A DNA stretch of 64,000 nt from a bacterium (GTDB lineage: Bacteria > Patescibacteriota > Saccharimonadia > UBA4664). Shown one piece after another: positions 33,894 through 36,341 of the stretch; positions within the stretch are counted from its first letter, which is position 1; every line of letters starts with the position of its first letter. The translations under genes were made by a program, and so were the position numbers. Under the pieces are notes generated by a model. That model did not search any database and was not told the DNA's origin. It saw only the letters and a list, made by a program, of their open reading frames with translations. Location of the stretch: contig CP064960.1 of assembly GCA_016699105.1 (NCBI GenBank), positions 136,727 through 200,726 of the forward strand, written 5' to 3'.

Positions 33894-34107
33894 AATGGTT
33901 ATTCTTATAATACTACATCGTAGTTGGTCATTAGGTGAAATAACTACTTGTATTATTTACCTTTTCATTGTAAAATAATGATTAGTGTTTAATCGTGGCA
34001 ATCGGCTGCGGTCACATCGACATTTGAGAGGTTTTCTTGTGCGACTTGATGCTTGACCTCGACGACACCTCAGTTCACTCGACGCCATCGGTTCGCCCAC
34101 ATCGCCA

Positions 34108-34866
34108 GTGGTTTTGGCTCTCGTGGGCCTCGTTGCGGTCATAGTCATGATCGGCATTGCGGCGCTGTGGGGAAATACTTATAACGCTGGCTTGGAAGCG
34201 GGAAGACTTCAGGGCAGGCAAGAGGGCATCGATCAAGGTAAAGCTGAAGGTATCAACGCCGGATTCGATCACGGTGTGATGGTTGGCCAGATGTATGGCC
34301 TTGCTCGCAAGCCTGATCCGCCGGTAGCAACCGTTCAGCCAGTCGGACGGCACAAATTTCTGACTCAGTCTGGCACGCCAATGTACAAATGCGTTAATGG
34401 AGAGCATGACGCGCTCATGAGTACTAGGAACAATGTGAGTATCCGCGGAGCGTGGATTTCCACGAGCTTGTCAGGTAGTGTTTTTCACATTGCCTGGAAC
34501 AATACCGATGCCATGATACTGTCAATTGGATACACAGACACAAACGGTAAAAGGCAAGAGCGTCAAATCCCCATTTTGGCAAAAGACGACCAAGTGTTAG
34601 CGGAAAACCAAGCTATGGCCAAGAAGCTAGTGACGACCGAGCAAACACCCGGTTACCCACGCTCACTAACTGAGATCATGATGAGCATGACTCATACTGT
34701 GGATGTGGATCTCACCAAAGTATTGCCAGGTTGGGATGGGGATACCCGGCTACCAGGCTCAGTGAACATCCATACAATAGTGTGCGATTACAAGGAGCCT
34801 GTTCCGGCGCAACTGCGCGATCCAGGATCTGTTGCTAGCCAGAATCTGGCGAAGCTCTATCGTTAA
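34108..34866 (+). CDS. Hypothetical membrane-anchored protein (inside atp-operon insertion)
   Basis: N-terminal TM 'LALVGLVAVIVMIGIAAL', then a Gly-rich charged repeat 'GLEAGRLQGRQEGIDQGKAEGINAGFDHG', then a ~180-aa soluble domain. GC content resembles the host. Confidence 0.5.
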   Translation: MVLALVGLVAVIVMIGIAALWGNTYNAGLEAGRLQGRQEGIDQGKAEGINAGFDHGVMVGQMYGLARKPDPPVATVQPVGRHKFLTQSGTPMYKCVNGEHDALMSTRNNVSIRGAWISTSLSGSVFHIAWNNTDAMILSIGYTDTNGKRQERQIPILAKDDQVLAENQAMAKKLVTTEQTPGYPRSLTEIMMSMTHTVDVDLTKVLPGWDGDTRLPGSVNIHTIVCDYKEPVPAQLRDPGSVASQNLAKLYR

Positions 34867-34968
34867 CCTCCGCCCCAGGGCCTTGACAGGTGTACTAACC
34901 AAGTACGCTCGTCGAGGCCCTTTGACTTGTTATAGCGGGATCAAATCTTTTGGATTCGATGTTTTAAA

Positions 34969-34988
34969 TTAGGACACTTTGCGCCTAA
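34969..34988. repeat. Solo copy of 20-bp palindromic-ended repeat core TTAGGACACTTTGCGCCTAA
   Basis: Same core as the four copies in the tRNA-Asn island (51793, 51993, 52946, 53554). It lies between the 3' ends of 34108..34866 and the AT-rich gene 35130..36302. Confidence 0.75.
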
Positions 34989-35129
34989 TTTTAGTGCATT
35001 AGGTATTCTGAGTCCGAGCAATTATGAGTCTAGATGACGCAGGTAATTTTCGGTGGCCGCACACTACATACTTTATGCTTACGTGCATTGCGGAGACTTA
35101 GTCTACTGCATAGATTCAAAATATATTTC

Positions 35130-36302
35130 TCACTTATCATTAAGGGGCATTGTTGAAAACTCTTTTAAATAGATCATTGATGCGTCGTATTTTTCAAATT
35201 CGTGGCTTAACTTCACAGATTGCCTTTGAGATATAATTGCTCTGTTAGTGTTAACCCACAGATCATGCGAATTTATACCTATGCAACTTAAGGGGATATC
35301 TTCGGAGTCAAGATAATAATCAATTGTCTTATGAAACCACTTTGATTTAGTCTCTAAGTCTTCTAAGTTGATTTGATGATTGAGGGCAGCATTTGGTGGT
35401 AAGTTAAGGTTTGCAATTCCTGAGACTATTCTAAAATCATTGGCATGGTAACTATACTCACCGATTTTATACACTTTAAATGGATGTAGGATTGTTTGAG
35501 GCGTAATTGTGTGTAATTGACTGTTCAATGTATCTTTAAACGAGTTAACGTAATCAGCTTCACATCCGAATATAAAATCTTTTGCATACCAAGCAATTAA
35601 ACTATTAATTTCGTTCGCTTTTTCAGCTGATAATTTCGTATATCGTACGTTTGCCAACCAACTTCCATATTTATAACTGGCAATTATTCGTCTACGTGCA
35701 ATCGTAACTTTTAATATTAACTTCTTATCTATAGGTATATACCAGCCTACAGCACGACCTTTCGAATCAAAAAATCCCGCTAAACCTCGTTCATTTGAAA
35801 TGGCCGAGATATTTTCAGGCAGAATTAGTATTTCCCACTCTGATGCCATGATCGGACACAATAGGTTCAACAGATAATCAACTCTGTTGCTATTAAGATT
35901 ACTTTCACTTAGTAATCCTAATGGCTTCAAATGCTGAACGATTGGATGGGTATTATACCTATCGTTGAAGTCTTGTCCACGGGCGAAAAGACCGCTAACA
36001 AGCGGTACCAATACATGAATAAATTCATCTAGATACAGAGGTGGCTCGTGGACCAACTTTGCAATCAATGGCGTAATTGGTGATTCGTATCCCCAATCAT
36101 CTACACTTTTCCAAACGTTAGTGTCGTCTAAGTCGTCATAAAATCGGTTTACAACACTTACCTGAGAAGCCATTTTAAGGTGTGCTGAAATTTGCCCTCG
36201 CCTGATTTGCCATACTTTTCTACTTCTAGTTTCCGTTTCTATGTCGGAAGAAAAGCGACCAATTAAAGCAGCGGGTATAATGTGTTGCTTCTTACCGCTC
36301 AT
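35130..36302 (-). CDS. AT-rich, probably horizontally acquired gene; DUF4238-like protein
   Basis: 390 aa. The N-terminus 'KKQHIIPAALIGRFS...NRFYDD' resembles the DUF4238 'HY(V/I)PQ.YL..F' start motif. Base composition is strikingly AT-rich relative to the adjacent atp genes. Confidence 0.5.
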   Translation of the reverse strand: MSGKKQHIIPAALIGRFSSDIETETRSRKVWQIRRGQISAHLKMASQVSVVNRFYDDLDDTNVWKSVDDWGYESPITPLIAKLVHEPPLYLDEFIHVLVPLVSGLFARGQDFNDRYNTHPIVQHLKPLGLLSESNLNSNRVDYLLNLLCPIMASEWEILILPENISAISNERGLAGFFDSKGRAVGWYIPIDKKLILKVTIARRRIIASYKYGSWLANVRYTKLSAEKANEINSLIAWYAKDFIFGCEADYVNSFKDTLNSQLHTITPQTILHPFKVYKIGEYSYHANDFRIVSGIANLNLPPNAALNHQINLEDLETKSKWFHKTIDYYLDSEDIPLSCIGINSHDLWVNTNRAIISQRQSVKLSHEFEKYDASMIYLKEFSTMPLNDK

Positions 36303-36341
36303 GATAATTGTATATTAGTTTATAAGGAACATTTTAGAAGA

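Follow-up and report, generated by a model that had tools for sequence, protein, structure and literature searches.

A strain-variable, low-GC DUF4238-like gene between atpG and atpD in the ATP synthase operon of a Saccharimonadia bacterium

The stretch of DNA analysed here (the window, 64,000 nucleotides of contig CP064960.1 from a bacterium of the Saccharimonadia) contains the ATP synthase genes atpF-atpH-atpA-atpG and atpD-atpC. The two groups are separated by a gene of low guanine-plus-cytosine (GC) content for a 390-amino-acid (aa) protein, GenBank QQR52717.1 (IPG36_01160, on a 1.32-Mb contig, annotated as hypothetical), and by an open reading frame (ORF) on the opposite strand, ORF272. 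Relatives of AtpG likewise assigned the window to the Saccharimonadia, with 95% protein identity to the best match at species level. This gene order, described from the sequence in an initial annotation, was borne out. Comparison with other contigs of the same species placed the 390-aa gene on a 1,413-bp segment that is present in some strains and absent from others. In the reading that we consider likely, this segment is a foreign cassette that carries a divergent gene of the DUF4238 family, presumably defensive, and that has spread by homologous recombination at a tolerant boundary between the genes for the gamma (atpG) and beta (atpD) subunits. The earlier proposal of a foreign, single-gene and possibly defensive element of DUF4238 type between atpG and atpD was upheld in this form, the defensive role being that suggested by family membership.

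The strain-variable insert and its gene

Conspecific contigs, which were found by exact-protein look-ups, came from different samples and were 98-100% identical to the window, fell into two groups. The insert was present, at 99.4-100% identity by megablast, in six of them (L032-L036 and L039) and absent from five (L037, L038, L040, L041 and L042), in which the flanks were 98-99.9% identical. In the empty allele, window position 36341 abuts position 34927, to the base in each contig, as shown by megablast for L037, L038, L041 and L042 and, in agreement, by the tail of the L040 sequence. With junctions marked by slashes, the empty site reads ...CCCGGCTAAT/AGTCAAAGGGCC... and the occupied site reads ...CCCGGTTAAT/CTTCTAAAATG...(1,413 bp)...CGCTATAACA/AGTCAAAGGGCC.... 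The insert starts 1 base past the atpG stop codon, base 36341 being native, and its other end is 6 nucleotides (nt) short of a stem-loop that is common to both alleles. Strains of one and the same Saccharimonadia species are polymorphic for the presence of the insert, and all six known copies of the 390-aa gene are at this single locus.

The foreign, low-GC origin of the insert was evident from its composition, i.e., a GC content of 36.9% versus 51.5% for the window. The AT-richness of the 390-aa gene relative to its neighbours, remarked upon in the initial annotation, was confirmed by a plot of GC content, in which the gene (37.1% GC, z = -4.7) was the lowest 1.17-kb stretch of the window, with a GC content at third codon positions of 32% as opposed to 59% for its surroundings (atpG). 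A drop in GC to 0.335-0.41 was seen only across about 34.9-36.3 kb, coinciding exactly with the indel. A foreign origin is also in keeping with the protein comparisons, all non-conspecific homologues in a collection of ~15 billion proteins being <=34% identical. The annotation had placed one foreign insertion of about 2.4 kb at this site, but the foreign unit is limited to 34928-36340, ORF272 having native GC content and being separate and older. Nor did the insertion split the atp operon as had been supposed, the operon being already interrupted by ORF272 and the same junction being interrupted in many relatives.

The insert is regarded as a gain because the 390-aa gene was missing from all 30 other species loci and because the locus of a sister species (L001) is laid out like the empty allele, a convergent ORF272 homologue ending about 56 nt from the atpG stop codon. 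A derived rather than ancestral state, as originally proposed, was thus favoured by comparison of the atp loci of relatives and by the five empty conspecific contigs; of the two genes between atpG and atpD, only ORF272 recurred, and only in the sister species. An indel by itself gives no direction of change, and of the two haplotypes the occupied one has diverged more, as might be expected if the occupied arrangement were ancestral and empty strains had precisely deleted the gene. Such a history is nevertheless very unlikely in view of the absence of the gene from the other species, the atpG-hairpin-ORF272 layout that the sister species has in common with the empty allele, the lack of repeats able to mediate a precise deletion and the unameliorated GC content of 37%, which argues for recent arrival. 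An assembly artefact or chimera might be suspected in a metagenome-assembled genome from error-prone long reads, the window having many homopolymer indel errors, but is scarcely credible and was refuted by six independent short-read assemblies from different samples that reproduced the insert at 99.4-100% identity, three of which (L032, L033 and L034) span the atpG junction together with atpG coding sequence.

Terminal inverted or direct repeats beyond chance were not found at the ends of the insert, and an apparent junction repeat, CCCGG(T/C)TAAT / CCCGCTATAACA, was rejected as a target-site duplication or att core because 13% of random 20-mer pairs matched or beat it. The 1,413-bp insert held no second credible ORF, and no recombinase or integrase was seen on inspection of ORFs at 1-42 kb and 48-60 kb (approximately 54 kb, not every ORF being scanned with hidden Markov models (HMMs)). 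A transposon or insertion sequence was rejected on the same grounds, i.e., no terminal repeats, no duplication above chance and no second ORF. The original insertion mechanism is not recoverable from the sequences compared.

Spread among strains was suggested by a tract, enclosing the insert, in which the occupied haplotype differs from the empty one more than it does elsewhere. Divergence was 10-14% in 34250-34927, on the ORF272 side, and 6%, then 2.8%, then 1.6% over 36341-37000, on the atpG side, where the last ~650 bp of atpG are in the tract. Outside the tract divergence was 0-0.4%, a level that was reached within about 700 bp on each side. Synonymous divergence (dS) between the two haplotypes was 0.23 for ORF272, 0.11 for atpG, 0.003 for atpA and 0.017 for atpD, and the ORF272 allele type and the state of the cassette were fully linked in the available contigs. 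The tract appears to be a footprint of one of two histories: either homologous recombination in the flanks brought in the haplotype from a relative that was more divergent, or two alleles have long coexisted and recombination has eroded their flanks. According to the proposed mechanism, the cassette would pass between strains as an allele, via homologous recombination in its atpG and ORF272 flanks. Other short tracts, 4-16% diverged from L037, were noted at 27000-27500, 29250-29500, 32250-32750, 39500-39750, 43500-45250 and 46750-47000, and seem to indicate frequent mosaic recombination in the population. A second conspecific indel was seen directly after atpC, where L037 (13629-14205) has an extra 577 bp that the window (32156-32162) is without; this segment holds a 118-aa ORF with a weak Imm32-like match.

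Membership of the 390-aa protein in the DUF4238 superfamily, as a remote and divergent member, was well supported by its homologues and by profile comparison. An exhaustive search of representative proteins gave 405 relatives at E <= 1e-3, the best with 34% identity, and 51 of 60 aligned homologues matched the Pfam model for DUF4238, PF14022 (E <= 1e-3; best 1e-22). Three Actinobacterial relatives (P0010-P0012) are named 'DUF4238 domain-containing protein' by NCBI, and P0002 and P0008 have precomputed PF14022 matches. When the subfamily profile was compared by hhalign with the validated DUF4238 protein of E. coli TA007, the sequence of which was taken from the supplement of PMC9122126, the probability was 95.2% with E 2.8e-8 over 239 columns, which align query residues 4-248 with residues 5-290 of 309. 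In agreement with this homology over nearly the full domain, both proteins have an N-terminal H-x-x-(P/S)...F motif. Positions H7, P10, A11, E73 and W215 are invariant in the subfamily. A word-indexed protein search returned only the protein's own fragment and one TPR-DUF4238 protein at 26% identity. The nearest relative, P0004, is carried by a high-GC contig and so does not point to a donor of the low-GC copy. The superfamily is hereby extended to a very divergent subfamily with more than 400 cluster representatives.

The DUF4238 gene cloned from a P2-prophage hotspot of E. coli gave strong resistance to T7 (Rousset et al. 2022, PMC9122126), and DUF4238 recurs as a defence gene in later surveys, including PMC12629846. 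The 390-aa gene is like the E. coli TA007 system in being a single gene without a partner, there being no partner ORF in the insert, and in occupying a strain-variable hotspot. It differs in its host, an epibiont of the candidate phyla radiation (CPR) rather than a proteobacterium, in its location, a chromosomal core operon rather than a prophage, and in having a role that is deduced from sequence. From this distant relative we infer, by family membership, an anti-phage function, in which the protein would act as a single-gene defence like the E. coli system. One homologue with 34% identity, P0006, adjoins a type I restriction-modification (R-M) system, Fic and RhuM.

Several results weigh against this reading. 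The DUF4238 likeness that the initial annotation had drawn from the N-terminus narrowly missed the cut-off in the Pfam test of the protein itself, which scored 25.9 bits (E 8e-6), just below the gathering score of 27, with a best stretch confined to the C-terminal part of the model; it was supported by the homologues and by the profile comparison. Identity to the validated E. coli protein is about 12%, a pairwise BLASTP comparison was not significant, and an extra C-terminal region of ~140 aa is not found in that protein. Defence models, a check proposed at the outset, gave no support either, there being no match in PADLOC-DB v2 at E <= 1, nor in NCBIfam, and no homologues were found in phage or plasmid collections.

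The gamma/beta junction

The gamma/beta junction is a recurrent landing site for accessory genes. Among the species loci in which both genes were found (about 27), the distance from the atpG stop codon to the first conserved AtpD residues was <=50 nt in 13, 78-320 nt in 6, which reflects N-terminal extensions of AtpD, and >=690 nt in 8. A ninth occupied locus, L009, has >5 kb of other genes after atpG. At least 8 distinct gene contents follow atpG across these loci, including a PfkB kinase (L005), a GtrA-like membrane protein (L006), a histidine phosphatase (His_Phos_1; L012), NTPase_I-T (L015), unknown proteins (L011 and L001) and an ~8-kb island in L018 (10911-18629) and L009 (2987-8573), which share a MoxR-type AAA_5 ATPase, a VWA (CobT_C) protein and a conserved protein of ~131 aa. 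The initial annotation had regarded the site as an unusual place for integration, but it is not a one-off, at least 8 unrelated contents being found at the same junction in the clade. Since the junction is variable clade-wide, insertion at this point is less surprising. All occupied gamma/beta junctions were in a subclade with >=73% AtpG identity, as compared with 0 of 7 more distant loci.

Other junctions of the operon were interrupted in fewer loci or not at all. The atpF/H and atpH/A genes overlap and were never interrupted, and atpA/G was interrupted in L018 and L009 only, the gap in L018 (7197-9970, about 2.8 kb) holding an HTH_17 protein and a 476-aa ORF. Interruption of atpD/C was noted in 3 loci (L001, L002 and L005). 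In L001 (13695-14609) and L002 (6013-6645) the inserted sequence is an AT-rich gene (41-46% GC) that matches both NCBIfam LAPAL_fam ('putative phage structural protein', E 3e-49) and the PADLOC defence candidate PDC-S42 (E 1.8e-28).

Three points limit the reading of the junction as a hotspot or as a defence locus. The junction counts are raw, without phylogenetic normalisation, and shared ancestry is possible (L018 with L009, L001 with the present species); regions just outside the atp operon are even more variable than gamma/beta; and most of the other genes found there are small and of metabolic or membrane type, so that the junction is not specifically a defence island. In the simplest reading, gamma/beta acts as an operon boundary between atpFHAG and atpDC, and insertion would be tolerated there because the boundary separates two transcription units. 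Repeated gene gain at this point suggests that the F1Fo genes are organised as two transcription units in the clade. In cyanobacteria and chloroplasts, atp clusters are split, with the beta and epsilon genes (atpBE) apart from a cluster that ends in gamma. The break point is the same in both cases, and this hints at a capacity of atpDC to be transcribed independently, although the halves are still adjacent in the present species and separated only by variable inserted genes.

Integration hotspots flanked by core genes, in which accessory and defence genes accumulate, are an established concept in pangenome and defence-island studies (see also PMC12629846). The present locus is like these in having conserved flanks (atpG and atpD) with cargo that differs across strains and species, and in a surrounding divergence tract as a sign that cargo is exchanged through homologous recombination between flanking sequences. 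It differs in that both flanking genes belong to a single canonical operon rather than to separate operons or a tRNA locus, the cargo consists mostly of single small genes, and hallmarks of an integrase or mobile element were not seen. The finding is of a familiar kind, an accessory or defence gene in a core-gene-flanked hotspot, and reveals no new mechanism; its unusual aspects are its location and the lineage in which it occurs. Genomes of Saccharimonadia and other CPR bacteria are tiny, and knowledge of their phage defence and gene gain is scant. The locus provides a base-resolved case of a foreign defence-type gene that segregates in a natural CPR population inside a normally inviolate bioenergetic operon, and a defined position at which strain-level gene flux can be tracked in metagenomes.

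ORF272 is a fast-evolving resident of the atpG/atpD gap, older than the cassette. Its GC content (52%) is that of its neighbours, and it was found in both alleles and in all conspecific contigs. The protein has one N-terminal transmembrane helix, an (A/G)xxxG-repeat helix and a C-terminal domain of ~170 aa. Its two haplotypes are 89% identical in protein as compared with 100% for AtpG, with a ratio of nonsynonymous to synonymous divergence (dN/dS) of 0.27, and the homologue in L001, which has the same position and orientation, is 41% identical whereas AtpG is 95% identical between these genomes. A family search with ORF272 returned conspecific proteins only. Matches to FliH-repeat and Yae1_N models were rejected as homology, being low-scoring glycine-repeat matches far under cut-offs.

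Folding predictions suggest how the inserted gene may be transcribed. The stem-loop beyond the cassette is likely to be a bidirectional terminator for ORF272 and for the transcript of atpG and the DUF4238-like gene, a role that the absence of a U-tract from the minus-strand hairpin weighs against. The 39-nt spacer after atpG has a predicted RNA fold of -1.2 kcal/mol (z 0.07) and no terminator, the DUF4238-like gene is co-oriented with atpG, and the sole strong hairpin lies past the cassette. Because the spacer is unstructured and the only strong hairpin follows the cassette, read-through is plausible. The leader of the gene has -10-like boxes near the ATG and no Shine-Dalgarno sequence. The gene would be expressed by read-through from atpFHAG or, as is equally possible, from its own -10-like boxes in the short, AT-rich leader. 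On the other side of the gap, the AT-rich stretch before atpD that had been described as promoter-like is real (34% GC, 33894-34048) but occurs in the empty allele as well, and so was not made by the insertion. This divergent intergenic region has a weak promoter-like site upstream of atpD (34001-33972, minus strand) and presumably holds the atpD-atpC promoter, from which atpDC would be transcribed as an independent unit.

The palindromic motif and rival explanations

The solo repeat core that had been reported beside the 390-aa gene (TTAGGACACTTTGCGCCTAA, 34969-34988) was present, with four more copies at 51.8-53.6 kb by a tRNA-Asn gene (0 expected by chance). It belongs to a 26-bp palindrome that in its 10-6-10 form reads AAATTAGGAC-ACTTTG-CGCCTAATTT. 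The copy in the cassette is 141 nt past the stop codon of the gene and, because it is 38 bp inside the end of the indel, was carried along as cargo rather than marking the site of crossover. Its presence indicates that the 3' flank of the cassette has a history in common with the resident accessory regions of the lineage, and fits import of the cassette from a related strain.

In the tRNA-Asn island (51465-53900) the motif copies alternate in orientation (+,-,+,-) around a 172-bp and a 588-bp segment, the latter holding a P-loop kinase gene (170 aa, AAA_33) framed exactly by two motif copies in inverted orientation. Conserved sequence runs outward from each pair (units 51746-51813 and 52897-52966, and units 51978-52054 and 53541-53617), and degenerate half-copies are found at 52110-52124 and 53507-53520. 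The 3' 18 nt of tRNA-Asn are repeated, in the manner of an att site, at 51689-51706, 167 bp downstream from start to start. When alleles of the island were sought via flanking proteins, only short contigs with the same arrangement were recovered. The A-type copies and one half-copy are followed, 14-30 nt on, by a TATAAT or TATGAT box, N6 and ATG (51829-51844, 52981-52996 and 52123-52138). This leaderless-promoter layout favours an operator or promoter-associated element; alternatively, the motif may be a recombination site or a REP-like (repetitive extragenic palindromic) element. No exact match to the motif was found in JGI metagenome contigs or IMG/VR, none within 5 mismatches was found in 31 related loci, and no Rfam family overlapped the motif or the cassette.

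Two rival explanations of the cassette concern its mobility and its function. It is quite unlikely that the cassette is a module of a site-specific system (integron attC, Xer/pdif or invertase-like) that uses the 26-bp motif with a recombinase acting in trans, although the 10-6-10 or 8-10-8 geometry resembles a recombinase core site, the five copies are exact while their flanks have diverged, small gene modules lie between copies of alternating orientation as in pdif modules, the pairs have conserved outward sequence and degenerate half-copies, and the motif travels with the DUF4238-like cassette. The single copy in or near the cassette is off the indel boundary, with none at the other junction or at the empty site, the imperfect junction repeat is at chance level, no integrase or recombinase was seen among the ORFs inspected (42-48 and 60-64 kb being outside the inspection), the gene is known from a single locus, the motif is absent from the related loci and the two public collections, and an operator or promoter fits the A-type copies at least as well as a recombination site does. 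A broader form of this idea, in which small accessory and defence genes are shuffled as cassettes by a trans-acting, palindrome-marked system, with gamma/beta as a preferred landing pad and expression by read-through, is similarly doubtful; if true, a CPR bacterium would have a system for gene capture of an integron-like or pdif-like type. Unlikely too is a strain-variable gene of the DUF4238 superfamily that is not anti-phage, e.g., an enzyme or regulator for the epibiotic lifestyle to which the position merely gives expression. This would accord with the very remote relation to the only tested DUF4238 protein, the lack of a defence-HMM match and the housekeeping-like character of the other accessory genes at the junction, but the combination of within-species presence/absence, foreign composition and single-gene architecture is typical of defence genes, a homologue is beside an R-M system, Fic and RhuM, and several surveys list DUF4238 among defence genes. 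Import of a presumably defensive DUF4238-type cassette by homologous recombination is the reading retained.

Particular known systems were compared with the cassette and its motif. The motif is like pdif modules, integron cassettes and REP/REPIN elements in being a short, exact palindrome, in alternating orientation around small modules and in its intergenic or 3' location. It is unlike them in having no similarity to dif or attC consensus boxes, in lying off the ends of the indel and in having only 5 known copies, and no recombinase or REP-associated tyrosine transposase was seen among the ORFs inspected. An integron gene cassette was rejected because the junctions (TAAT/CTTC and AACA/AGTC) have no attC-like boxes (R''/R', RYYYAAC...GTTRRRY; crossover G/TT). 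Rejection of an integron array followed from the absence of an integrase-like ORF among the ORFs inspected (1-42 and 48-60 kb) and from motif copies that alternate and are not co-oriented. A Xer/pdif module (integrative mobile element exploiting Xer, IMEX) was rejected because the cassette has a single motif copy, which is 38 bp short of one end, whereas the opposite end has none, and because on inspection the motif did not resemble the dif consensus (11-6-11).

Gene layout and sequence quality of the window

Coordinates of the features discussed above are given in Table 1.

Table 1. Features of the atp locus and related elements, in window positions
Feature	Position	Strand	Remarks
atpC	32159-32416	-	
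atpD (F1 beta)	about 32429-33893	-	Pfam
Divergent intergenic region ORF272/atpD	33894-34048		155 bp; 34% GC; in both alleles
ORF272	34049-34866	+	ORF list gives 34108-34866; 252 aa as read in window
Raised-divergence tract	34250-37000		~2.7 kb; occupied versus empty haplotype divergence profile
Stem-loop	34877-34921	both	-32.2 kcal/mol (+, z -6.0); -29.9 kcal/mol (-, z -4.1)
Presence/absence insert	34928-36340	-	1,413 bp; megablast junctions versus conspecific contigs
3' region of cassette	34928-35129	-	202 bp; one motif copy and only short, unsupported ORFs
26-bp motif AAATTAGGACACTTTGCGCCTAATTT	34966-34991	+	8-10-8 or 10-6-10 palindrome
DUF4238-like 390-aa gene	35130-36302	-	
atpG-to-gene spacer	36303-36341	-	39 nt; AT-rich, unstructured; -10-like boxes TATAAA, TACAAT
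atpG (F1 gamma)	36342-37199	-	Pfam ATP-synt, E 4.7e-33
atpA	37203-38703	-	
atpH	38696-39178	-	
atpF	39168-39767	-	
Other motif copies	51790, 51988, 52943, 53551	+, -, +, -	tRNA-Asn island

The window comes from an assembly of long reads in which some errors persist, and homopolymer indel errors in it account for false frameshifts in atpA, ORF272 and atpD. The atpA frameshift at 37964 is a homopolymer length difference versus short-read conspecific contigs, the window copy of atpD has homopolymer errors at 32759, 32577 and ~32550 (32551, 32546), and that of ORF272 has a 1-nt homopolymer deletion at 34116, its true length being 272 aa. Further 1- or 2-base homopolymer differences between the window and short-read contigs were noted at 26.9-27.4 kb and 29.3-30.0 kb. 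In short-read conspecific contigs atpA (499 aa) and atpD (488 aa, as read in L037) are intact. Decay of the operon, with atpA and atpD as pseudogenes, was ruled out, all frameshifts being homopolymer-length differences versus all short-read contigs. The crtI-like gene at 57678-58979 likewise appears frameshifted.

No canonical atpB or atpE adjoins the atp genes in the window. Directly upstream of atpF is a gene (39775-40653, minus strand) for a protein of 271-292 aa that had no match in Pfam or NCBIfam and has a C-terminus (...SIGRNPLSRSSVLRGLLQVMTIVFGILISAGVAMYLVI) that resembles the hairpin of the F-ATPase c subunit. AtpD has a Pro/Thr/Ala-rich N-terminal extension of ~58 aa (33720-33893), with similar extensions in several relatives, and AtpA has a Pro/Ala-rich C-terminal tail (37203-37290). 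Elsewhere in the window, nine tandem paralogous genes for secreted proteins (1645-12358, minus strand) share an N-terminal signal region and the motif 'AAGP(L/T)A(A/M)FEPE(T/A)G'; the bodies of the nine proteins are beta-helix-like or glycosyl-hydrolase-like, and a tenth gene, at 4117-5013, is without the motif.

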